64,000 nt of DNA from an uncultured Gammaproteobacteria bacterium. GTDB lineage: Bacteria; Patescibacteriota; Patescibacteriia; Magasanikbacterales; GWA2-37-8. Positions 15,596 through 26,659 of the stretch are shown here, one piece after another. The number at the start of each line of letters is the position of its first letter. Within the stretch, counting starts at the first letter, position 1. The translations under genes and the position numbers were made by a program. Location of the stretch: assembly GCA_964496095.1 (NCBI GenBank), contig CAZBWU010000001.1, positions 48,617 through 112,616 on the forward strand, read 5' to 3'. Below the pieces are notes generated by a model. The model saw only the letters and a program-made list of their open reading frames with translations. It made no database searches and had not been told where the DNA came from.

Positions 15596-18547
15596 ATGTA
15601 CAACGCCAATCAAGAAGAACAAGAAATACTGAAATACTGGAAAGATAACCACTCTTTTGAAAAGTCTATTTCCAGCAGAGCAGAGAATAAGCCCTACCAT
15701 TTTTATGATGGGCCTCCTTTTGCTACCGGATTGCCTCATTATGGGCATATTGTCGCTTCGACAATGAAAGACGCTGTACCGCGTTATTTTACGATGCGTG
15801 GGTACCGTGTGGAGCGCAAGTGGGGTTGGGATAGCCATGGTCTACCAGTAGAAAATATTATTGAAAAAGAGCTTGATTTGGCATCAAAAAAAGATATTGA
15901 AGATTATGGGGTAGCAAAATTTAACGAAGCTTGCCGAGCGACTGTGCTCAAATATGCTACTGAATGGCAGAAAACCATTACCCGTATGGGTCGCTGGGTA
16001 GACATGAAAAACGACTACAAAACCATGGACCCAAATTTTATGGAAAGTGTCTGGTGGGTCTTCAAACAGCTTTGGAATAAAGGATTGATTTATAAAGATT
16101 ATAAGGCGATGCATATCTGTCCTCGTTGTTCTACTACCCTTTCAAATTTTGAAGTAACACAGGGGTATAAAGATATTAAGGATATTTCAGCGATTGCCAA
16201 GTTCAAAGTAGATAGATTTAGAGGATCAAAATTACCTGACAATACTTATATTCTTGCTTGGACAACTACTCCTTGGACTTTGCCTGGGAATGTAGTGTTG
16301 GCTGTAAATCCTGAAATTGATTATGTTGTTTTAGAAATAGAAGGGGAAGAAGGAAGTTTTGTTTTGGCTAAGGAAATGGCTGAAAAAGTAATGAAAGATA
16401 AAAAGTATAAAGAAATTAGTAGTTTAAAAGGTTCTGATTTAGTTGGTTTAGAATATGAACCACTATTTTCATATTATAAAGACACTTCTAATGCTTTTAG
16501 AGTAGTGGGGGCTGAGTTTGTTTCTGTTGAAGAAGGTACGGGCATAGTGCATATTGCCCCTGGATTTGGTGAGGATGACTTCCAGGTTGGAAAGCGTGAA
16601 AATATTCCGATGGTACAGCACGTATCTATGGAAGGTAAGTTTAAGCCCGAGGTGACAGATTTTGCGGGGATGGATGTAAAACCAAAAGATGATAATAGTA
16701 AGGCTGATATTGAAATTATCAAATGGCTAGCTCATAACGGAAAATTATTTAGTAAAGAAAAAATAGAACACAGCTATCCGCATTGTTGGCGTTGTGATAC
16801 TCCGCTTCTCAATTATGCCACTACTAGTTGGTTTGTGCGCGTCACTCAAATCAAAGATCAGCTCATCAAAAATAATCAAAAAATAAATTGGGTGCCGGAA
16901 CATATCAAAGACGGCCGTTTTGGTTTGTGGTTGGAAGGTGCCAGAGATTGGGCAATTTCTCGCAGTCGTTATTGGGGCACACCATTGCCAGTTTGGCAGT
17001 GTGTTGGAGAAAAATGTGAAAATACGATTGTTATTGGATCAGTAGAAGAATTTGAAAAATTATCAGGACAAAAAATTACAGATTTACATAAACATATTAT
17101 TGATGGTATAGAGTTGCCTTGTGATAAATGTGGAGCGCAGATGAAGAGAATTCCAGAAGTGTTGGATTGCTGGTTTGAATCCGGCAGTATGCCGTATGGG
17201 CAGATGCATTATCCTTTTGAAAATAAAGCCAAGTTTGAAGCCAGTTTTCCGGCTGAATTTATTGCCGAAGGTCAGGATCAAACTCGTGGTTGGTTTTACA
17301 CATTGCATGTTTTGGCAACGGCTCTTACTATGGGAGAAAGTCCCTCTATTCCAGTACAAAAATCTGAGCCTGGATTTAAGAATGTGATTGTAAATGGTAT
17401 CGTGCTGGCTGAAGATGGTAAGAAAATGAGTAAGAGATTAAAAAATTATCCAGAGCCGGAAATAGTTTTGGAGAAATATGGCGCTGATGCTTTGCGTTAT
17501 TATTTGTTAACTTCACCAGTGATGCAAGCCGAGAGTCTGAACTTCTCCGAAGTGGGTGTGCGTGAAGTTTTTAATAAATTGATCAATACTGTCTATAATG
17601 TTTTGGAGTTTTATAAAATGTTTGCTAGCGAAAGTTCGCAGTTGGAAGCTGGCGGTTCGCAGCCAGAAAATGTTTTGGAAAAATGGATTTTGGCAAAGTT
17701 GCAAATCCTGATTAAAGATGTGACAACAGGAATGGAAACCTACAAACTCGTAGAAGCCAGTAGGCCAATTGTAGAATTTGTGACCGAGTTATCGCAGTGG
17801 TATGTGCGTCGTTCTCGTGATAGATTCAAAGGCGATGATGAGCAAGACAAACAATCTGCTTTAGCGACTTTGCATGAAGTATTATTAACCCTGTCTAAAT
17901 TAATGGCGCCATTTACACCTTTTATTGCCGAGAAAATATATCAAGAGGTACAAAGTATGGTAGAAGGAATGCAGGGAAGCGTGCATTTAGAAGAGTGGCC
18001 TCTTGTTGATGAAAAGCTGATGGATGATAAAGTGATGAAAATGATGGAAATGGCACGTAAGGTGGTGGAGATGGGGTTGGCGCTTCGCGCAGAGCAGGGA
18101 TTGAAAGTTAGACAGCCCTTAAATACTTTAACAATAAATAATAAAGAATTGGACAGTGAATTTTTTGGCATTATTCAAGATGAATTAAATATCAAGAAGG
18201 TTGAGTTGGTTGAAAATAATACAGATGATAAGTCTTTGGTCTGGAAAGAAGATGGAACAATAAAAATTGGTTTGGATGTAATCATTACCGACGATCTCAA
18301 AAAAGAAGGCTTGCTTCGTGAGATTGTGCGTACTATCAATCAGATCCGCAAAGATCAAAAGCTAACTATCTCTGATAGGGTTTCGGTTAAGTATAATGTT
18401 AAGGACGAGCTTTTGAAATCAGTGTTTGTTGAATATGTAGATGAAATCAAAAAGTCTGTGTTGGCAGATATGTTGGTAGAAGCAGACGGGGGAGAAGAAA
18501 AGGAAATCGGGGGAGTTATGGTGGGGGTTTTGGTGGAGAAGTTATAA
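15596..18547 (+). CDS. ileS: Isoleucine--tRNA ligase
   Basis: HIGH-type motif PFATGLPHYGHIV, the KMSKR motif (KMSKRLKNYPEP), the class I editing insertion and a 983-aa length. Confidence 0.95.
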   Translation: MYNANQEEQEILKYWKDNHSFEKSISSRAENKPYHFYDGPPFATGLPHYGHIVASTMKDAVPRYFTMRGYRVERKWGWDSHGLPVENIIEKELDLASKKDIEDYGVAKFNEACRATVLKYATEWQKTITRMGRWVDMKNDYKTMDPNFMESVWWVFKQLWNKGLIYKDYKAMHICPRCSTTLSNFEVTQGYKDIKDISAIAKFKVDRFRGSKLPDNTYILAWTTTPWTLPGNVVLAVNPEIDYVVLEIEGEEGSFVLAKEMAEKVMKDKKYKEISSLKGSDLVGLEYEPLFSYYKDTSNAFRVVGAEFVSVEEGTGIVHIAPGFGEDDFQVGKRENIPMVQHVSMEGKFKPEVTDFAGMDVKPKDDNSKADIEIIKWLAHNGKLFSKEKIEHSYPHCWRCDTPLLNYATTSWFVRVTQIKDQLIKNNQKINWVPEHIKDGRFGLWLEGARDWAISRSRYWGTPLPVWQCVGEKCENTIVIGSVEEFEKLSGQKITDLHKHIIDGIELPCDKCGAQMKRIPEVLDCWFESGSMPYGQMHYPFENKAKFEASFPAEFIAEGQDQTRGWFYTLHVLATALTMGESPSIPVQKSEPGFKNVIVNGIVLAEDGKKMSKRLKNYPEPEIVLEKYGADALRYYLLTSPVMQAESLNFSEVGVREVFNKLINTVYNVLEFYKMFASESSQLEAGGSQPENVLEKWILAKLQILIKDVTTGMETYKLVEASRPIVEFVTELSQWYVRRSRDRFKGDDEQDKQSALATLHEVLLTLSKLMAPFTPFIAEKIYQEVQSMVEGMQGSVHLEEWPLVDEKLMDDKVMKMMEMARKVVEMGLALRAEQGLKVRQPLNTLTINNKELDSEFFGIIQDELNIKKVELVENNTDDKSLVWKEDGTIKIGLDVIITDDLKKEGLLREIVRTINQIRKDQKLTISDRVSVKYNVKDELLKSVFVEYVDEIKKSVLADMLVEADGGEEKEIGGVMVGVLVEKL

Positions 18548-18666: not shown

Positions 18667-19647
18667 ATGACAAATTATATGTTAACCTTCAAAGAAATGT
18701 ACGACCTGGGTGTGAAGCTCGGAGGGGCAGCTGATCCTCGTGGAGCAAAGGGAGTAAAAAAGTATTTAGAAAGAGTTGCAAAAGAGTTCGCAGGTTTGAA
18801 GCCTGAGGATAAAAAATATTTTGAAACAGATAGATTAGTAAACCCATATTTTTTTGATACTCGCATGCATGTTGGTAATCATAAAGATTCAGTAAAAAGA
18901 ATTTTGGCCGGTATTGATGTGGGAGCGGGTGAAATTTTGCTTGCTACTCAACTAAATGAACGTGGGCAAAAAATAGATGCCGTAGTCGCTCATCATCCAA
19001 TGGGAGGAAGTTTGGCCACTCTGCACGGTATTATGGATATGGTGGTAGAAGTTTATGAAGAGTTGGGTGTACCGGTGCATTTGGCAGAAAAATATATGGA
19101 AGAAAGAATTAACGAAGTGGGTCGCAGTGTCCATCCCATCAATCATTATCAAATCATAGATATGGCTAGATTGTTAGGAGTTAATTTTATGAACATGCAT
19201 ACTCCTACCGATAATTTGGTGCATGTATTTTTGGAAGAATTTTTAGCTAAAAAGAAACCGGAAACTGTGGGTGATGTTATGGATGCTTTAATGGAAATTC
19301 CTGAATATCAAGAAGCCAAGAGAAGAGGCAATGGCCCAGTTATTTTTAGCGGTAGCCCTAGAAATAAAGTTGGTAAATATATTTTAGAAATGACTGGCGG
19401 TACTGAACCCGCTAGTAAAATTTATACCGAACTTTCTCGTGTTGGTATAAGTACGGTGGTGGGGATGCATATGCAAAAAGATCAAAGAGATAAAGCTAGT
19501 GAATCCAGTATGAATGTCGTAGTGGCTGGTCATATGTCTTCTGACTCTTTGGGTATGAATTTGTATTTGGATGAGCTCGAGAAAAAAGGTGTGGAAGTTA
19601 TACCGTGTGGTGGATTAATTCGCGTGAGTAGAGTCAAGAAAAAATAA
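18667..19647 (+). CDS. Nif3-like dinuclear metal-centre protein (with an N-terminal extension)
   Basis: DAVVAHHP and NMHTPTDN segments resemble the conserved HHP and HTNLD motifs of the NIF3/YqfO family. The assignment is tentative. Confidence 0.45.
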   Translation: MTNYMLTFKEMYDLGVKLGGAADPRGAKGVKKYLERVAKEFAGLKPEDKKYFETDRLVNPYFFDTRMHVGNHKDSVKRILAGIDVGAGEILLATQLNERGQKIDAVVAHHPMGGSLATLHGIMDMVVEVYEELGVPVHLAEKYMEERINEVGRSVHPINHYQIIDMARLLGVNFMNMHTPTDNLVHVFLEEFLAKKKPETVGDVMDALMEIPEYQEAKRRGNGPVIFSGSPRNKVGKYILEMTGGTEPASKIYTELSRVGISTVVGMHMQKDQRDKASESSMNVVVAGHMSSDSLGMNLYLDELEKKGVEVIPCGGLIRVSRVKKK

Positions 19648-19777
19648 ATCAGGCAGTTCAATTATTGATATTTTTTTGTGGCAAGACGGCTCCCGCTGGG
19701 AGCTCGCCCGCTGTGGCGGGTTGGTGATTGCCACTTTAAAAATATAAATAATTTCTCGTTTCAATAATGTAGGGTCT

Positions 19778-20347
19778 ATGATATCTGTGGTTGCTGGAAA
19801 AATTTTAACCAAAAATGAAAACAAAGTCACGGTACTTACCTCTGGCGGCGTTGGTTATGAAGTTATGGTCAATTTTCGTTCTTCCGAGAATTGGGCAGTG
19901 GGAATGGAAGTAAGTATTTTAACCTATTTAGCTGTGCGAGAAAGTGCCTTGGATTTATATGGCTTTGCAAATTCACAAGAGAAAGATCTGTTTGAGAAGT
20001 TTTTGTTAGTAAGCGGTGTTGGTCCTAAGACTGCTTTGCATTTGTTATCTCTTGGTACAGTGTCAGAAATCTCGACCGCTATCGCTCAAGAAGATTTGGC
20101 CTATCTCACCAATGTAAGTGGTATTGGCAAGAAAACCGCGGAAAGAATTTTGGTGGAACTGAAAAATAAAATGGGTACGGGAATTATGGGCGAAGCAGGT
20201 ATCGATAGTTCGTTGGGAGATGTGATAGAAGGTTTGATGGCTTTGGGCTATTCGCTTCTTGAAGCAAGAAATGCGGTGAAGAATTTAGATGTAAAGGGTA
20301 AAAATAGTGAACAGCTTTTGAAAGAGGCTTTGCAAAGAGTAAAATAA
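19778..20347 (+). CDS. ruvA: Holliday junction branch migration complex subunit RuvA
   Basis: N-terminal OB-fold start (MISVVAGKI...VLTSGGVGYEV) and tandem HhH motifs (LLVSGVGPKTALHLL, LTNVSGIGKKTAERI). Confidence 0.9.
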   Translation: MISVVAGKILTKNENKVTVLTSGGVGYEVMVNFRSSENWAVGMEVSILTYLAVRESALDLYGFANSQEKDLFEKFLLVSGVGPKTALHLLSLGTVSEISTAIAQEDLAYLTNVSGIGKKTAERILVELKNKMGTGIMGEAGIDSSLGDVIEGLMALGYSLLEARNAVKNLDVKGKNSEQLLKEALQRVK

Positions 20348-20375
20348 ATTAGTTAATTTATTTAATATAAAACAT

Positions 20376-21137
20376 ATGGGAACTATAGGATTTTTATTAC
20401 CATGGGTAGTCGGTTTGGTATTTTTAGGTTTAAGAACAGTCCAACAATATCAAAAAGGAGTTATTTTCCGTTTTGGTAAAATTGTGGGTATTAAAGAGCC
20501 TGGTCTAAATTGGATTATTCCATTTATTGATCAAGTGCGTAAAGTTGATTTCCGCACGGTCACATTGCCTGTGCCAACTCAAAAAATTATTACTCGCGAT
20601 AATGTGTCAGTCGATGTTTCGGCTGTAGCCTATTACAAGATAGTTGATCCAATCAAGAGTATTGTGGCGATTGAAAATGTGATGAGTGCGATAAACCAAA
20701 TCGCCCAAACTTCAATTCGCAACATTGTTGGTAAATTTCAACTCGATGAAATACTTAGCGAACGTGAACAGATTAACAAAAGTATTGCTGGCGTTTTGGA
20801 TGCTCATACAGAAGCTTGGGGAGTGGTGGTGTCTGTGGTAGAAATAAAAGATATTGAATTGCCAGAAGGTATGCAGAGAGCGATGGCCAAACAGGCGGAA
20901 GCGGAAAGAGAAAAGCGCGCCAAGATTATTGCTGCTGAGGGTGAATTTTTGGCTTCCCAAAGGCTCGCAGATACAGCCGATGTTATGCAAGCTCATCCAA
21001 TTGCTTTACAACTTCGCAATTTGCAAACTATGGCTGAAATTAGTGTGGAAAAAAACTCAACTATTATCTTCCCTGCTCAGTTTATGAGCACAATCGGTGA
21101 AATCAAGAAATTCATGAGCCAAGAAACAGCTAAGTAG
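20376..21137 (+). CDS. SPFH/band-7 (stomatin/HflK-like) domain membrane protein
   Basis: N-terminal TM segment, then the SPFH core (RTVTLPVPTQKIITRDNVSVDVSAVAYYKIVDP) and a coiled-coil (AMAKQAEAEREKRAKIIAAEGE). Confidence 0.85.
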   Translation: MGTIGFLLPWVVGLVFLGLRTVQQYQKGVIFRFGKIVGIKEPGLNWIIPFIDQVRKVDFRTVTLPVPTQKIITRDNVSVDVSAVAYYKIVDPIKSIVAIENVMSAINQIAQTSIRNIVGKFQLDEILSEREQINKSIAGVLDAHTEAWGVVVSVVEIKDIELPEGMQRAMAKQAEAEREKRAKIIAAEGEFLASQRLADTADVMQAHPIALQLRNLQTMAEISVEKNSTIIFPAQFMSTIGEIKKFMSQETAK

Positions 21138-21160
21138 TTTATAAAATATTATCGTTATTT

Positions 21161-21598
21161 ATGATCTGGCTTTTTTATTCTTTGGCGACCATAATTTTAT
21201 ATGGTGTCCATGATATTTTGGTTAAACATTTAGCTGGGAATGTTAATGAAATTACAGCCAGCACCATTATTAATGGTAGCGCAAGCTTGATTTTACTTTT
21301 TATAGCAATTTTATTTTACATATTTAATCCGGAAACTAAATTTTTATCTGGTATAAATAATGAAAATTTTATTTGGTTGTGCTTAGCTGGAATTTGCTTA
21401 GGTATAGCAACTGTTACCTTAATGTCTTCTTTTAATAAGGGCGGCTCTTTTTCTATTGTTATACCAATTGTTTATGTAGGGATTATTTTAGTTAGTGCTT
21501 TAGTTGGGTTTTTTTATTTTAAAGAACCTTTAAATTTTAAGCAGATACTAGGTGTAGTTTTAAGCGTAGTTGGAATGGTTTTTTTATTGCAAAAATAA
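21161..21598 (+). CDS. Small 4-TM membrane protein (SMR/EamA-like small transporter)
   Basis: 145 aa with four hydrophobic helices. It starts 7 nt upstream of the decarboxylase gene. Confidence 0.45.
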   Translation: MIWLFYSLATIILYGVHDILVKHLAGNVNEITASTIINGSASLILLFIAILFYIFNPETKFLSGINNENFIWLCLAGICLGIATVTLMSSFNKGGSFSIVIPIVYVGIILVSALVGFFYFKEPLNFKQILGVVLSVVGMVFLLQK

Positions 21599-21604
21599 TC
21601 TTTT

Positions 21605-22846
21605 ATGAATTCGATAAAAAGTTTAGTTAAAAAACACGGAAGCCCAATTGTTTTATTTTCCAAAAAAGAATTTAAAAAGTCGTATTCATCGCTACAGAAA
21701 TTTTTACCTCAGGTTAAGCATTTTTATTCTTTGAAGCCCCTGCCATTTGAAGAATGTGTAAAAATTGTGTCGAGTTGCAAAGGCTACGTAGATGTTGCTT
21801 CTTTAGGTGAATTAGAAATGGTAAAAAAAGTAGACCCAACCATGCTTTCTCGTTGTATATACACACATCCTATAAAAAAAGATGCTGAAATTAAATCGGC
21901 ATTTGAAAATGGTGTAGACGTAATGGTGGTGGATAATATGGAGGAAATTAAAAAATTTTTACCCTATAAAGATAAAGTAAAAATTTTAATTCGCCTTGGT
22001 TTTCCAAACGATGAAGCAAAGTGCAATCTGTCTGAAAGATATGGGGCTGATGAAGCAACATTTAAAGAACTTGTAAATTTTGCTTTTGATAACCAATTAA
22101 ATATAATTGGGGCCTCGTTTCATGTTGGAAGTCAAATGCAGAAACCAACCGAGCATATTAATGCTATTAAAAAGTGCAAGGTGTTTTATGATTGGGTATT
22201 TAAAAATCATGGCACAAGGTTTGGTACTTTAGATATTGGAGGTGGCTTTCCCGCAAAGTACAATAACTCTGATATGGATTTAGAAAAATTTTGTAAACCA
22301 ATCGGAGAGGCATTAGAAAATTTTTTCCCAAATACTGAAATTTGGTCTGAACCAGGAAGATCTGTTGCTGCCAATTGCATGATAGCCGTAAGCAGGGTAG
22401 TAGGGAAGACATTTAAAAATGGTAAAATGTGGTATTATTTGGACGATGGAGTTTATGGAACATATTCGGGTATGATGTATGAAGATATAACCTACGAGCT
22501 CTATTCTGTTAAAAAATCTAATGAAAAACCAATTGCTTCTATTTTTGCTGGCCCAACTTGCGATAGTGTGGATATTATAGTGCCAAATGTAATGTTCCAA
22601 CCCTTGGATATAGGAGATATTCTTTTTTCTAAAAGAATAGGGGCCTATAGCGTAACTAACAGAACACGTTTTAACTTGCTTGAATTAGCAAAGGTAATAC
22701 CGTATGATTTTGATTTAGAAGATTTTGAAAATATTTCGAGCTCTACGTCGGTCAGTGAGGAAAAAAATCTAATTCAAAAAATTTTTGGTACAGTATTTAA
22801 TCATACGGTCGCTCCATATAGGTATTTTAATAAAAAGAAAATTTAA
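21605..22846 (+). CDS. PLP-dependent Orn/Lys/Arg decarboxylase (alanine racemase-fold, group IV; ODC/DapDC-like)
   Basis: FYSLKPLP (Lys-PLP region), FHVGSQ, GGGFP and EPGRS motifs. The 413-aa length fits. Confidence 0.8.
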   Translation: MNSIKSLVKKHGSPIVLFSKKEFKKSYSSLQKFLPQVKHFYSLKPLPFEECVKIVSSCKGYVDVASLGELEMVKKVDPTMLSRCIYTHPIKKDAEIKSAFENGVDVMVVDNMEEIKKFLPYKDKVKILIRLGFPNDEAKCNLSERYGADEATFKELVNFAFDNQLNIIGASFHVGSQMQKPTEHINAIKKCKVFYDWVFKNHGTRFGTLDIGGGFPAKYNNSDMDLEKFCKPIGEALENFFPNTEIWSEPGRSVAANCMIAVSRVVGKTFKNGKMWYYLDDGVYGTYSGMMYEDITYELYSVKKSNEKPIASIFAGPTCDSVDIIVPNVMFQPLDIGDILFSKRIGAYSVTNRTRFNLLELAKVIPYDFDLEDFENISSSTSVSEEKNLIQKIFGTVFNHTVAPYRYFNKKKI

Positions 22847-22851
22847 TAAGT

Positions 22852-22962
22852 ATGGCTGAAATTAGTGTGGAGAAAAACTCAACCATCATTTTCCCAGCTC
22901 AGTTTATGAGTACAATCGGTGAGATTAGGAAATTCATGAGTCAAGAAACGGTAAATAATTAG
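22852..22962 (+). pseudogene. Orphan duplicate of the SPFH gene 3' end (gene remnant)
   Basis: About 110 nt that are roughly 85% identical to 21031-21137. It would encode MAEISVEKNSTIIFPAQFMSTIGEIRKFMSQETVNN against the SPFH C-terminus MAEISVEKNSTIIFPAQFMSTIGEIKKFMSQETAK. The differences are almost all synonymous. Confidence 0.75.
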
Positions 22963-22967
22963 CTTCT

Positions 22968-23888
22968 TTAAATCTTACCTAATACTAGTGCCAATAATGC
23001 TTGGCGTATGTATAAGCCATTGGCTGCCTGCTGAAAGTAATAAGCATATGGTGTTGCGTCCACGTCTGTATGAATTTCATTAATACGTGGGAGAGGGTTT
23101 AGGATCCGCATAGTTTTTTTGGCTCCTCGTAGCATATCGGCTCGGAGGACGTATACATTTTTTAGTCGTTCAAATTCAGCCTTATCTGAAAATCGTTCTT
23201 CTTGGACGCGATTTGTATAGAGAATATCCACTTTTTTTAGGACATCATCCATATTTTCGTGCAATGAAAACTTTATTCCAGCTTGTTTCAGTTCATTTGT
23301 AATTGAGTCTGGCATTTGCAGGCTTGGAGGAGCAATAAAGTACAATTGGACTTTGAAATGTGTAAGCGCTTGTGCCAATGAATGCATGGTACGGCTATGT
23401 TTAGGGTCGCCCATCATTGCAATGTGAAGCCCATCAATTTTCTTCTGACATTCCAATATAGTAAATAAATCTATCAGAGTTTGCGTTGGGTGTTGATTTG
23501 CCCCATCTCCGCAATTGATGACTGGTTTATCTGTAGCTTCTCCGGCTATCTGAGCGGCGCCTTCAAGAAAATGCCTGATAGCAATTATGTCAACATATTG
23601 GCCGATAATTTTCATGGAGTCATGGAGAGTTTCGCCTTTTTTGGAAGAGGTTACATCTGGATCTGCAAAACCAATAACACTACCCCCGAGTCTTTGCATG
23701 GCGGCTTCAGTGGAAAGACGAGTGCGAGTTGAGGGTTCAAAAAAACAACTTGCTAGGATTTTTCCTTTAAGCAAGTTGTTTTTAGGGGAAACTTTTAATT
23801 GTTTGGCTACTTTTATTATATCCAGAATCTCTTTTTTACTGAGTTCGTTTATAGAGATAATATCTCTGCCGACGAGACTACTTTTCAT
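22968..23888 (-). CDS. pyrB: Aspartate carbamoyltransferase catalytic subunit
   Basis: STRTR carbamoyl-phosphate binding motif, HPTQ (aspartate-specific; OTCases have HPCQ) and the 306-aa length. Confidence 0.85.
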   Translation of the reverse strand: MKSSLVGRDIISINELSKKEILDIIKVAKQLKVSPKNNLLKGKILASCFFEPSTRTRLSTEAAMQRLGGSVIGFADPDVTSSKKGETLHDSMKIIGQYVDIIAIRHFLEGAAQIAGEATDKPVINCGDGANQHPTQTLIDLFTILECQKKIDGLHIAMMGDPKHSRTMHSLAQALTHFKVQLYFIAPPSLQMPDSITNELKQAGIKFSLHENMDDVLKKVDILYTNRVQEERFSDKAEFERLKNVYVLRADMLRGAKKTMRILNPLPRINEIHTDVDATPYAYYFQQAANGLYIRQALLALVLGKI

Positions 23889-24063
23889 ATAGAAAAAGTT
23901 AAAAATTAACTAGCTAAATTTAATCAAGAAAATAGATGTCTGTCAAATGGGTAAATACTGTTGATGGTTGACAATGGGGCTTAAGAGTTATATTATTTAT
24001 CCAAATCTCTATGATAGAGATTTGGATAATATATGTATTTAACTTGTTTATTTTGATTATTTT

Positions 24064-25062
24064 ATGGTTGAAGATAATTTGATTTTTTACGAAAAGAAAA
24101 AGCTGGTTGGAAATATTTCTGTCTTAGGAGTTCCTTTAGATTTGGGTAAAGATGCTTCGGGTACTGAACTAGCTCCTGCGTATATAAGAAATTCGGGGTT
24201 GAAAATAATGTGTGAAGAGATCGGCCTTTCTTATAAAGATCTAGGTGATATAGAGTGCGCAGATAAAATCGTGTCACCAATTGGCGATATTAAAGTAAAG
24301 TATTTGGATGAAATTGTGAGGGTGGTTGAAGAGTCTGCCAAAATTGTCAAAAATGAAGTAGAAGTAGGTAATAAAATGTTGGTTTTGGGTGGAGACCATT
24401 CTATTTCCATTGGTAATATCTCTGGGGCTTCTGTGGCCTGTGAAGGGGATTTGGGAGTGGTTTGGATTGATGCTCATGGCGATATGATGACTCATGAAAA
24501 TACTTTGTCTGGAAATATCCACGGCATGCCATCTTCGGCTGTAATGGGGTTGGGGCATAAAAAATTGACCGATGTTTTAAAGCCAGGCGCCAAAATAAAA
24601 ACTGAAAATATTATTTATATTGGTCTAAAAGATTTGGATCAGGCTGAGGTTGATCTGATTAGAGAAAAGAAACTAAACGCTTTTACAATCATGGATATAG
24701 CTCGCTATGGTCTTGATCCAGTCATGAAAAGTTTGTCTGATCTCAAAAAACGAGTTGGTAATATTTGGGTAAGTTTGGATGTTGACGCTATTGATTCGCT
24801 TTATAGTTCAGCGACGCCTATGGCCACACCCGATGGTCTAAGCGGAAGAGAGATATTTTGTTTGACAAAATATATCGGTAAAATGGACAATTTAGTCGGC
24901 ATGGATATTGTGGAGGTCGCTCCGGAAATGGATGAAAATGGAAAAACCGGCAAGTTGCTTATGGAGCTCACAGCCAATTTATTGGGAAGCGAGTATGGCT
25001 GGTATAGTCAGTATATGAAAAAAGAATTGACCAAACAAGAAGAAAGAAGCCATAAAATTTAA
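24064..25062 (+). CDS. Arginase/agmatinase family ureohydrolase
   Basis: Binuclear Mn motifs GGDHSIS, DAHGD and SLDVDAID. Confidence 0.8.
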   Translation: MVEDNLIFYEKKKLVGNISVLGVPLDLGKDASGTELAPAYIRNSGLKIMCEEIGLSYKDLGDIECADKIVSPIGDIKVKYLDEIVRVVEESAKIVKNEVEVGNKMLVLGGDHSISIGNISGASVACEGDLGVVWIDAHGDMMTHENTLSGNIHGMPSSAVMGLGHKKLTDVLKPGAKIKTENIIYIGLKDLDQAEVDLIREKKLNAFTIMDIARYGLDPVMKSLSDLKKRVGNIWVSLDVDAIDSLYSSATPMATPDGLSGREIFCLTKYIGKMDNLVGMDIVEVAPEMDENGKTGKLLMELTANLLGSEYGWYSQYMKKELTKQEERSHKI

Positions 25063-25108: not shown

Positions 25109-26659
25109 TTATTTCATTTTTTCTCGTAATAATTTTTCCGCTACTACCGGATCGGCTGAGCCTTCGGTGGCTTTCATGACCATGCCTTTGAGAAATTGGA
25201 GAATTGATTCTTTGCCACTTTTGAATTGTTCGACTTGTTGCGGATAGTTCTTTATGATTTCATCTACAACTTCGGATAGCTTGCCTTCATCGCTGATTTG
25301 TCCGTAGCCTTTTTCTTCCATGACGTGCGTTGGGTCAAGGTCAACGCCGGAATCAAGCATTTCATTCAGGATTTTTTGGGCATTGGTGGAGTTAACCCGG
25401 TTGCTATATATCAAAGCAATAAGTTCGGCAAAATTTTCTGGTTTTAATTTGAGAATTTTTATATCAATTTTGCGTTCGGCCATGGCGCCGACAAGCTTAC
25501 TAGTAATCCAACCACCCGCGAGGCGGGCGATTTGTTGTTGTTTGTTTCGTTTGATTTCGTCTGTGTCGGTTTTGGATTCGCTCAAGTTATGAAGCCATTC
25601 TACTAGTTCGGTCATGACATTTTCGGTGTAATCTGCCCAGGTAGAATCATTGGCGAGCAGTTCGGCGTCGGCGTAAGAGAAACCATATTCTTCTCGGAAG
25701 CGTAAGCGTTTAGCTTGAGGGAGTTCTGGTAATAATACTTCACCTGCTACTTTGAGCGGATGAAATGGAGGAATGTCTGGCTCGGGGAAATAGCGGTAAT
25801 CAGCTGAACTTTCTTTTTCTCTTTGCATGACTGTCTCGCCTTTGTTGTCGTCCCAACCCCGAGTTTGTTGTTTCCATGTTTCGCCAATGGCTAACATTTC
25901 AGTCTGTCTTTTTATTTCAAAATCAATCGCTTTTTCGACAGCGCGGAAGGAGTTAATATTTTTGACTTCTACTTTTGGATTGAGGGTATAACCATCTACT
26001 GGTTTGATAATCCCGTGGTCGTTGACGAACTTACCTTCTTCTTGGATAGAAATATTGGCCTCACAGCGCATGTTGCCTTTTTCCATGTCAGCATCGCTGA
26101 TTTCTAGGTAACGAAAAATATTTTGTAATTCTTGGCAATACATTTTGGCTTCAGCAGAGCTAGTGACATCAGGCTCGGAGACAATCTCGACCAGAGGCAC
26201 GCCAGCACGGTTAAAATTGACCAAGGTGTTGCCGGAAGCGTCATGGGATAGTTTGGCCGTGTCTTCTTCCATATGCACTCTGGTGACCCCAATTTGGGCT
26301 TTATCGCGATGATTCTTGCCAGGAAGGAATTCTAGGTCAATGTAGCCGTGTTCGCCAATTGGTTGGTCAAACTGGGATATCTGGTAGCCTTTAGGAAGAT
26401 CTGGGTAAAAGTAATGTTTACGGTCAAATTTGCTTTCAGGATTGATCTCACAATTGAGGGCTTTGGCGATTTTGACTGCCCAGGCCAGGGCGGTTTGGTT
26501 GGGGACTGGCAGGGTGCCAGGGTGAGCGAGGCAGATTTCGCAGATATTTGCATTAGGCTCAGAAACAAAAGGATCATTTTTGCAACTGCAAAACATTTTG
26601 CTTTTGGTTTTGAGTTCAACGTGGATTTCCATGCCGATTATGGGGATGTATTTGGGCAT
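25109..26659 (-). CDS. gatB: Asp-tRNA(Asn)/Glu-tRNA(Gln) amidotransferase subunit B
   Basis: N-terminus MPKYIPIIGMEIHVELKTKSKMFCSC and the C-terminal YqeY-like tail. 516 aa. Confidence 0.95.
   Translation of the reverse strand: MPKYIPIIGMEIHVELKTKSKMFCSCKNDPFVSEPNANICEICLAHPGTLPVPNQTALAWAVKIAKALNCEINPESKFDRKHYFYPDLPKGYQISQFDQPIGEHGYIDLEFLPGKNHRDKAQIGVTRVHMEEDTAKLSHDASGNTLVNFNRAGVPLVEIVSEPDVTSSAEAKMYCQELQNIFRYLEISDADMEKGNMRCEANISIQEEGKFVNDHGIIKPVDGYTLNPKVEVKNINSFRAVEKAIDFEIKRQTEMLAIGETWKQQTRGWDDNKGETVMQREKESSADYRYFPEPDIPPFHPLKVAGEVLLPELPQAKRLRFREEYGFSYADAELLANDSTWADYTENVMTELVEWLHNLSESKTDTDEIKRNKQQQIARLAGGWITSKLVGAMAERKIDIKILKLKPENFAELIALIYSNRVNSTNAQKILNEMLDSGVDLDPTHVMEEKGYGQISDEGKLSEVVDEIIKNYPQQVEQFKSGKESILQFLKGMVMKATEGSADPVVAEKLLREKMK

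Follow-up and report, generated by a model that had tools for sequence, protein, structure and literature searches.

The genomes of the candidate phyla radiation (CPR, or Patescibacteria) are tiny, and the route by which these bacteria come by new metabolic functions is an active question. The locus considered here poses it on a small scale. It lies in a 64,000-nt stretch of DNA from a Patescibacteria (CPR) genome (GenBank assembly GCA_964496095.1, contig CAZBWU010000001.1, positions 48,617 to 112,616), referred to below as the window. There, a gene for an SPFH/Band-7 protein and the convergent gene pyrB are separated by an insert, a 1822-bp block made up of a spacer, a gene for a membrane protein of the EamA family, a gene for a decarboxylase and a tail of about 85 nt. 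The 3′ end of the SPFH gene recurs at the far side of the block. How did two genes come to stand between two copies of the end of a third?

A model-made note, written from the letters of the window alone (the earlier note), had proposed that this polyamine-type pair was acquired by recombination in the SPFH 3′ end. The proposal is supported by empty sites in relatives, by the chimeric makeup of the displaced gene end and by the foreign composition of the two genes. The best explanation overall, to which we give a probability of about 80%, is that a foreign cassette was gained by integrase-free host recombination in the SPFH 3′ end.

Two copies of one gene end

A repeat search returned one long direct repeat (21018-21127 and 22840-22949, 87% identity, offset 1822). 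In the SPFH frame it begins with the ATG of Met219, at 21030 in copy 1 and 22852 in copy 2, and the last 108 nt of the gene (21030-21137) are repeated 1822 nt downstream at 22852-22962. Copy 1 encodes MAEISVEKNSTIIFPAQFMSTIGEIKKFMSQETAK and copy 2 encodes MAEISVEKNSTIIFPAQFMSTIGEIRKFMSQETVNN, each followed by a stop codon. The earlier note had placed copy 2 correctly, but copy 1 starts at 21030 and not at 21031, and the identity is 87-89% rather than about 85%.

Over the 33 codons compared, the two copies agree at 88 of 99 nt. Ten of the 11 changes are synonymous and at third positions, and the other, AAG to AGG, replaces lysine with arginine; at least 10 third-position changes among 11 would be expected by chance with P = 1.3e-4. 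The codon-by-codon alignment gives, by the Nei-Gojobori method, a non-synonymous divergence (dN) of 0.012 and a synonymous divergence (dS) of 1.03, which confirms the near-exclusively synonymous divergence that had been noticed before. Past codon 33, copy 2 reads GTA AAT AAT TAG and the empty-site alleles read GTA AAA TAG, a difference of 1 nt deleted in the A-run that turns the ending ...ETVK (stop) into ...ETVNN (stop).

In-situ duplication followed by divergence was excluded, since the working copy is farther from the outgroup alleles than the relic is (9 versus 5-7 differences over the same 99 nt) and nearly all changes are synonymous. The level of divergence is uninformative about which copy is native, as all SPFH alleles of the clade differ by about 10% at synonymous sites.

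Empty sites in relatives

The window was compared with a set of named loci (L081-L084, L086, L087, L090 and L166-L180), of which L166 and L167 come from ENA and L168-L170 from Logan. The named near relatives of its SPFH protein are from Magasanikbacteria and other CPR metagenome-assembled genomes. In five independent assemblies (L166, L167, L168, L169 and L170), the cassette is absent, and ruvA and the SPFH gene are followed by a 9-bp spacer and the convergent pyrB; the longer of these contigs continue through pyrB (minus strand) and an arginase-like gene to gatB (minus strand). The arrangement that the earlier note had asked for, SPFH followed directly by pyrB, is thus found: pyrB directly adjoins the SPFH gene in L166, L167, L169 and L170, and the 989-bp contig of L168 reaches the pyrB 3′ end. 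L166 and L169 match the window with 88-92% nucleotide identity on both flanks. The SPFH protein of the window is 97-98% identical in amino acids to those of the empty-site relatives, and synonymous divergence from them is even along the gene (about 7-12 changes per 90 nt).

The junction between the relic and pyrB in the window is the same as that between the SPFH gene and pyrB in the empty sites, and the two are collinear (L166 ...GAAACGGTAAAATAGTTAGTTTCTTCAAATTTTACC..., window ...GAAACGGTAAATAATTAGCTTCTTTAAATCTTACC...). Because copy 2 and its 3′ flank run collinear with the empty-site junctions, and because copy 2 carries a lysine-to-arginine change and a 1-nt deletion, it is copy 2 that is the displaced, decaying 3′ end. 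Together with the synonymous-only divergence, this collinearity bears out the earlier claim that the second copy comes from a once-functional SPFH allele and not from a random duplication.

More distant loci also lack the cassette. In the next outgroup, L171/L172 (SPFH 94%), the SPFH gene is followed by the convergent pyrF-pyrE-pyrD, and there is no cassette in L086 (pyrB-pyrC) or in L087, where a full pyr operon lies between pyrB and ruvA. A scan of a genome collection with the SPFH protein gave 80 loci, none of them with the cassette or with the window's other neighbours beside the SPFH gene; the protein is too conserved for such a scan to pick out close relatives. A metagenome scan with pyrB returned no empty site; the best relative has 74% amino acid identity, and in the loci returned pyrB is followed by the pyr operon, which is useful for polarity. 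An old arrangement would have been suggested by relatives that all carry the cassette without a duplicated SPFH end. That is not what was seen, as every carrier contig that reaches the downstream side has the duplicated end (L179 and, for its first 29 nt, L082 and L176).

Two further observations concern the neighbourhood of pyrB. The gene is an orphan in the window and in the empty-site relatives, whereas pyrI-pyrC-(argF)-pyrD-pyrK-pyrE-pyrF follow it in L087, and pyrF adjoins the SPFH gene in L179. Since the genes from pyrI to pyrF have been lost relative to these relatives, the junction between SPFH and pyrB is itself derived, through a pyr-operon deletion. In L170 (Logan SRR28161539, 4635 bp), ruvA, SPFH, pyrB, the arginase-like gene and gatB are all frameshift-split or truncated, which is probably poor assembly and not biology.

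The cassette in other lineages

The cassette is not confined to the window. Carriers of the same strain (L084, a 19.9-kb contig, L081 and L083) come from sister samples, and carriers from other lineages are L179, L082 and L176-178. As the structure recurs in independent assemblies, it is not an assembly artefact.

L179 is a 3068-bp NCBI contig (GCA_020049755.1) with the order SPFH (3′ 450 nt)-EamA-decarboxylase-relic-pyrF, the last on the minus strand and in the place of pyrB. It is 98.5% identical to the window over 20684-22946 and 99.5% identical in the two cargo genes. The relic itself, however, falls into two parts. In its first 63 nt, L179 and the window differ at one position, a C-to-T change that gives L179 an in-frame TAG stop at codon 17; over the 36 nt that follow, 16 positions differ (Fisher's exact test for the breakpoint, p = 8.5e-8). 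The distal part of the window's relic differs from L166/L169 at 1 of 36 positions. That of L179 differs at 5 of 36 from L171/L172, where the SPFH gene likewise lies next to pyrF, and at 15-16 of 36 from the alleles next to pyrB. The proximal part has ACC and ATC at codons 11-12 in both the window and L179 and in no other allele, and the junction between the decarboxylase gene and the relic shows 0 differences over 34 nt among the window, L179, L176 and L082. As the proximal relic and this junction are shared across contexts while the distal relic is local, the proximal part travels with the cassette and the distal part belongs to the host genome. The earlier suggestion that copy 2 is the donor allele therefore holds for the proximal 63 nt, which are cassette-linked, but not for the distal 45 nt or so and the pyrB junction, which are those of the resident allele.

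The other edge of the cassette bears a mark of its own. The SPFH gene ends in ACA GCT AAG TAG/TAA (ETAK, stop) in all carriers (the window, L179, L082 and L176-178), and the empty-site alleles read ACG GTA AAA TAG/TAA. A C-terminus of the form ...QETAK is absent from the other 69 of the 70 closest SPFH cluster representatives. The spacer that follows (21138-21160) differs from that of L179 at 1 of 23 nt and from those of L082 and L176-178 at 5-6 nt.

The possibility that L179 is an assembly chimera was considered and judged unlikely, since the only long shared run (27 nt) is broken by the private C-to-T stop. Such a stop is possible only in a non-functional copy, and the structure of L179 is thus considered real.

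A third lineage of carriers, lineage B (L082 and L176-178; contigs of 1.2-1.8 kb, breaking at the repeats), shows that the cassette is itself a mosaic. Its decarboxylase gene and the first 29 nt of its relic are 98.8-99.7% identical to those of the window, whereas identity drops to only about 71% over the first 406 nt of its transporter gene (114-119 differences; p = 2e-69 for the contrast), with the switch near position 21567, towards the 3′ end of that gene. Further genomes with a diverged SPFH-transporter arrangement must exist somewhere. The SPFH end of lineage B equals that of L166 for 51 nt and then changes to the cassette-linked ACA GCT AAG. The breakpoints lie in the SPFH gene, in the 3′ end of the gene for the transporter and in the relic, so that several recombination events must have shuffled the locus among lineages.

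The lineage-B contigs start in copy 1, and the two longest of them, L082 (1803 bp) and L176 (1815 bp), end in copy 2. Such ends are expected from the breakage of a de Bruijn graph at a repeat; a 1.8-kb circle would give the same pattern.

How the cassette entered the SPFH gene

The recombination fell within the final 108 nt of the SPFH gene. No integrase, transposase or other recombinase gene lies in or beside the block, which holds only the two cargo genes and is flanked by housekeeping genes; the repeat search found no terminal inverted repeats bracketing the insert, and the plasmid and phage collections searched gave no match to it. The SPFH protein is near-invariant from about residue 60 to residue 245 over many CPR lineages (Magasanikbacteria, Komeilibacteria, Paceibacterota and others). 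This conservation is unusually strong for a Band-7 protein and may explain why the 3′ end of its gene serves as a recombination target.

The direct 108-nt duplication and the presence of cassette-linked states on the inner sides of both copies point to integration of the Campbell type. Most probably, the founding donor would have been a genome related at about 89% nucleotide identity in which SPFH, transporter and decarboxylase genes natively follow one another. A donor fragment from SPFH codon 219 to just past the decarboxylase gene would have circularised, and the circle would have integrated by a single crossover in the resident SPFH 3′ end, duplicating the homology. The distal half of the donor's repeat would then be left on the transporter side, as the present ...ETAK (stop) end of the working SPFH gene, and the proximal half on the decarboxylase side, at the start of the relic, while the resident 3′ end would be displaced downstream as a dead relic against pyrB. 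Later spread between lineages would have taken place by ordinary homologous recombination, with the SPFH gene as the left arm and the relic as the right.

Several points weigh against this account. A native donor (SPFH ending in ...ETAK, then the pair, then sequence other than a relic) was not found, and the circular form is inferred, not observed. With a single crossover, each event should have just one crossover point, but the visible SPFH part of L179 (450 nt) is 98% identical to the window and 86% to L171. As the whole of it is window-like, a double crossover with linear DNA, using SPFH and relic arms, explains L179 better; in Patescibacteria, genes for competence and recombination are reportedly common (PMC12455944). 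The founding and spreading steps are not cleanly separable. In L179, copy 1 and copy 2 share states in a patchy way, and this suggests that gene conversion took place later, blurring the polarity. The recipient may have been of the window type or of the L179 type, L179 and the lineage-B contigs being only 1.2-3 kb long.

A possible but clearly less probable course of the founding event is homology-facilitated illegitimate recombination, a process traced to de Vries & Wackernagel 2002, Prudhomme et al. 2002 and Meier & Wackernagel 2003 in the accounts given by PMC5361080 and PMC3240628. A linear donor would be anchored in the SPFH gene by homologous pairing, and its far end, which lies just beyond the decarboxylase gene, would be joined at a microhomology just upstream of the resident Met219. 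A join upstream of the anchor's end would duplicate the last 108 nt, and the founder's relic would be wholly resident, with copy 1 as the donor allele. The junction fits such a join to some extent. AATTTAATAAGT, which precedes the ATG of the relic, matches 8 of the 12 nt of the SPFH sequence that precedes Met219 in the resident gene (AATTTGCAAACT, followed by ATG), the run AATTT included, and may be a microhomology join. The relic of L179 is also compatible with one contiguous allele about 90% identical to L171. Documented cases of the process come from naturally transformable bacteria, and it has been put forward to explain displaced 3′ ends at type VI secretion system (T6SS) and rhs loci (PMC5361080); natural competence with homologous integration has been demonstrated in Saccharibacteria, which are themselves CPR bacteria (PMC10633639). 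However, in experiments the outcome is an insertion coupled to a deletion, and a duplication of the homology is the signature of a single crossover with a circle (PMC3240628). The ACC and ATC of the proximal relic, furthermore, occur in no sampled resident-type allele, yet are the same in two contexts. For the founding event, the data do not separate a circle from illegitimate recombination.

It is also conceivable, though we consider it unlikely, that the repeat-flanked 1.8-kb unit is an integrase-free mobile cassette. Its SPFH-derived repeats would recombine and release a circle with one hybrid repeat, and this circle, or linear DNA imported through competence, would re-insert into the near-invariant SPFH 3′ end of other CPR lineages, whatever lies downstream. 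If this were true, diverged genomes that are poor in recombinases would share the end of an ultra-conserved housekeeping gene as a landing pad for metabolic cargo.

Foreign composition and age

The GC content of the transporter gene is 0.288 and that of the decarboxylase gene 0.331, compared with 0.38-0.40 in the adjacent flank genes and 0.44 in gatB. At third codon positions, the cargo has 0.23-0.26 and the flanks 0.31-0.35. The window and L179 have 99.5% identity in the core of the cassette, and all carriers have 98.8-99.7% in the decarboxylase gene, while carrier and empty-site genomes are about 10% apart. The relics have undergone almost no neutral decay, with one non-synonymous change and one indel in the window and one stop in L179. 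The distinct composition, the near-identity of the cargo against a flank divergence of about 10% and the scant decay of the relics indicate that the insertion is recent relative to the splitting of the lineages, and they argue against an old arrangement that was lost repeatedly.

The reverse course, in which the cassette is ancestral to the clade and the empty sites arose by precise deletion through the direct repeats, restoring an intact SPFH-pyrB arrangement, is for these reasons very improbable. A 108-nt direct repeat at 89% identity would be a plausible substrate for deletion, and as such an excision would be scarless, the empty sites alone cannot show the direction of the change. However, the cassette is lacking in the outgroups L171/L172, L086 and L087 and in five of the five close non-carriers sampled. 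The GC content of the cargo is 6-10 points below that of the flanks, the carriers share the cassette at 98.8-99.7% against a flank difference of about 10%, and the almost undecayed relic must be young relative to the splitting of the lineages. A dS of about 1 between the copies is also unreachable by in-situ duplication without an equal non-synonymous decay of the relic.

That the duplication is an artefact or a chance repeat, or that copy 2 is a small gene under selection, as its open 36-codon ATG frame in the window and its calling as a gene in L084 might suggest, is hardly credible, since the structure turns up again in independent assemblies made from several samples, a match of 110 nt at 87% identity is far more than chance would give, and copy 2 has no Pfam match, a frame-shifted end in the window and an in-frame TAG at codon 17 in L179.

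The membrane protein

The first cargo gene encodes a protein of 145 amino acids with one EamA domain (PF00892, 37.4 bits against a cutoff of 28.2), in which residues 2-143 correspond to positions 2-134 of the 135 in the model. Hydropathy gives five hydrophobic segments, and an AlphaFold2 model (predicted local distance difference test score, pLDDT, 95.3) places helices at 2-24, 30-55, 67-92, 97-118 and 126-143. By profile match and predicted structure, the protein is a single-EamA-domain, five-helix member of the DMT superfamily. Proteins of the SMR family, such as EmrE, MdtJI and Gdx, have four helices and about 110 amino acids. The earlier note had taken the protein for a four-helix, SMR/EamA-like one; the EamA assignment stands over the full length, while the helices number five and an SMR match is lacking. 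Membership in the SMR family was rejected on the five helices and on the absence of an SMR family from the Pfam matches. The only SMR-type sequence match is to the NCBIfam model ArnE, below threshold (21 bits versus 92). A Foldseek search of the PDB with the AlphaFold2 model gave nothing significant, the best hits being Gdx-Clo and EmrE at E > 2.

A word-indexed homologue search with this protein returned only itself and the lineage-B allele. An exhaustive search found 311 clusters (at 50% identity) with E <= 0.001, 31 of them with E <= 1e-10, mostly of 140-146 amino acids and all unannotated. The family is sparse and uncharacterised.

The decarboxylase and the function of the pair

The second cargo gene encodes a decarboxylase that matches PF02784 with 146.8 bits (cutoff 23.4) and PF00278 with 60.6 bits (cutoff 23). 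Its best relative of solved structure is 2plj, the lysine/ornithine decarboxylase of Vibrio vulnificus (5.9e-85, residues 4-367), followed by 5gjm, the lysine/ornithine decarboxylase of Selenomonas ruminantium (5.6e-60), and by 2p3e, a diaminopimelate decarboxylase (5e-22). The motifs YSLKPLP, with the lysine that binds pyridoxal 5′-phosphate (PLP), DIGGGFP, EPGR and GPTCDSVD align with those of 2plj. The protein scores below every NCBIfam equivalog cutoff, including those of the lysA, speA and nspC models. On these alignments, the predicted enzyme is closest to the bacterial lysine/ornithine decarboxylases, not to the diaminopimelate, arginine or carboxynorspermidine type.

Its nearest database homologues are 58-63% identical and have 383-392 amino acids (mostly 387); homologues of 387-388 amino acids align only to residue 384 and lack the tail of the window's protein. 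This C-terminal tail of about 25-29 amino acids (22757-22843) is followed by the double stop TAATAA, which runs to 22849, 2 nt before the ATG of the relic. It may have arisen as a by-product when the junction formed. A search for the source of the tail and junction in the fetched loci and the window gave only short matches at chance level.

The two genes belong together. In another CPR genome (L173/L174, GC 0.31), a gene for an EamA protein of 144 amino acids (49% identity) lies directly upstream of one for a decarboxylase of 388 amino acids (60% identity), so that the two genes form a unit. Two further homologues of the decarboxylase (L175 and L180) are solitary, in unrelated neighbourhoods that include outer-membrane protein genes. 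The transporter gene starts 23 nt after the stop codon of the SPFH gene and the decarboxylase gene 6 nt after that of the transporter gene, and with such spacing the cassette genes are probably co-transcribed with the SPFH gene. Promoter and terminator scans of 19600-24200 gave counts no higher than in shuffled sequence and nothing convincing inside the cassette.

Two genes away from the cassette lies the arginase-like gene, which is also present in the empty-site relatives L166 and L169. Its product scores 215 bits with the arginase model TIGR01229, just below the cutoff of 227.6, and only 90 bits with the agmatinase model. Given this arginase-like gene, a route from arginine through ornithine to putrescine, with a putative transporter, is the most economical reading of the predicted cargo. 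The resident arginase-like enzyme would convert arginine to ornithine, the acquired decarboxylase would convert ornithine to putrescine (or lysine to cadaverine), and a dimer of the small EamA protein would carry the substrate or the product across the membrane. The small transporter is without a characterised close relative, which weighs against this assignment, and a literature search for ornithine decarboxylase in Patescibacteria found nothing relevant.

A rather doubtful alternative is that the cargo forms a decarboxylation/antiport couple for acid tolerance or energy conservation, like speF-potE or cadA-cadB, with substrate taken in, amine sent out and one proton consumed per turnover. 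The transporter and decarboxylase genes are tightly paired, with a spacer of 6 nt, the pairing is kept in a second CPR genome, and it is typical of inducible amino-acid decarboxylase systems. However, systems of the speF-potE/cadA-cadB type combine fold-type I decarboxylases with 12-helix APC antiporters, whereas here the enzyme is of the biosynthetic fold-type III and its partner a five-helix EamA half-unit. The adjacent arginase-like gene also suggests an internal supply of ornithine, and no regulator is present.

Layout of the locus

The features of the locus and its resident neighbours are collected in Table 1.

Table 1. Genes, repeat copies and junctions at the SPFH-pyrB locus, in window coordinates
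Feature	Position	Strand	Evidence or remark
ileS	15596-18547		
NIF3-like gene	18667-19647		
ruvA	19778-20347		
SPFH/Band-7 (slipin-type) gene, 253 aa, intact; left homology arm and landing site	20376-21137	+	PF01145, 155 bits
Repeat copy 1, SPFH codons 219-253 and stop	21030-21137	+	Last four codons ACA GCT AAG TAG (...ETAK, stop), in carriers only
SPFH-transporter spacer, 23 nt; left edge of foreign DNA	21138-21160	+	Not in empty sites
Single-EamA-domain membrane protein (DMT superfamily), 145 aa; putative half-transporter acting as a dimer	21161-21598	+	PF00892
Fold-type III PLP-dependent decarboxylase, 413 aa, bacterial lysine/ornithine type (predicted)	21605-22846	+	PF02784 and PF00278
Decarboxylase/relic junction AATTTAATAAGT, containing the double stop TAATAA	22840-22851	+	Same in all carriers
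Relic (copy 2), proximal 63 nt, SPFH codons 219-239; cassette-linked	22852-22914	+	1 of 63 nt differs between window and L179
Relic (copy 2), distal part; resident SPFH 3′ end at its ancestral place against pyrB, decaying	22915-22962	+	1 of 36 nt from L166/L169
pyrB (aspartate carbamoyltransferase), convergent with SPFH; right flank of the insertion site	22968-23888	-	TIGR00670, 352 bits (cutoff 237)
Arginase-like gene, resident	24064-25062	+	PF00491, 198 bits
gatB	25109-26659	-	

The presence of the arginase-like gene between gatB and pyrB is lineage-specific. It is found there in L086 and in the clade of the window, while gatB stands directly before pyrB in L087 and L090. Upstream of the gene, positions 23968-24029 hold a promoter-like site close to the consensus (TTGACA-17-TATTAT, 11 of 12) and, immediately after it, a perfect palindrome of 16+16 nt, TTATCCAAATCTCTAT G ATAGAGATTTGGATAA. 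The palindrome is imperfect in L169 and absent in L166, and it may be an operator or a 5′ hairpin.

Gene gain in small genomes

The locus is a fully resolved example of gene gain, with an empty site in relatives, a filled site, a displaced relic of the target gene and the same cargo in a second context. It shows that genes can be gained through host recombination alone, at the end of a highly conserved gene. Cases in which recombination brings in a small genomic islet and displaces a gene end have rarely been resolved in the CPR group. The predicted functions suggest that, in some members, the gain of one enzyme and a small transporter may complete a route from arginine through ornithine to putrescine that starts from a resident arginase-like gene. 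The mechanism is already known from model bacteria, and the value of the case lies in a documented natural example and a pathway prediction rather than in a new principle.

Comparison with known systems

The predicted enzyme resembles the lysine/ornithine decarboxylases of known structure (2plj/2plk and 5gjm) in its full-length alignment and in the catalytic motifs it has kept, and differs from them in the extra tail of about 25-29 amino acids. MdtJI is a small polyamine exporter of the SMR family, and SpeF-PotE and CadA-CadB are decarboxylase/antiporter pairs. The cassette is like these in having the gene for a small, multi-helix, oligomerising subunit beside a decarboxylase gene, with probable co-expression. 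It is unlike them in that this subunit is predicted to be a five-helix EamA protein, neither a four-helix SMR protein nor an APC antiporter.

As to mechanism, the arrangement is close to Campbell-type integration as studied in E. coli, where a circular molecule with one segment of homology, on integrating by a single crossover, leaves that segment in two copies (109-950 bp; Amarir-Bouhram et al. 2011, PMC3240628). Here, too, a direct duplication of the homology, of 108 nt, brackets the insert, a site-specific recombinase is not needed, and the halves of the donor's repeat lie on the inner sides of both copies. The differences are that the event took place in nature, in an uncultured CPR bacterium, that the alleles involved are about 11% diverged and the circle is one that we infer, and that at least one of the later transfers has the look of a double crossover in which the incoming DNA was linear. 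With homology-facilitated illegitimate recombination, the locus shares foreign DNA beside a conserved anchor gene and a possible microhomology at the non-homologous junction; the documented outcome of that process, however, deletes recipient DNA, whereas here recipient DNA was duplicated and nothing was lost.

The closest conceptual parallel is the displacement of C-terminal ends at rhs and contact-dependent inhibition (CDI) loci and of T6SS effector-immunity modules in Vibrio cholerae (Jackson et al. 2009; Kirchberger et al. 2017, PMC5361080). In these systems, as here, a module recombines with the conserved upstream part of a gene and brings a new 3′ end and one or more downstream genes, and the old 3′ end is orphaned downstream. 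Assignment of the locus to this class was rejected, as it has no different C-terminal domain and a single relic only. The peptides encoded by the new and the old SPFH end are almost alike (33 residues that are the same apart from K/R, then ETAK versus ETVK), the gene that serves as anchor is a housekeeping scaffold gene, the cargo is metabolic and not a toxin-immunity pair, and one relic stands in the place of an array.

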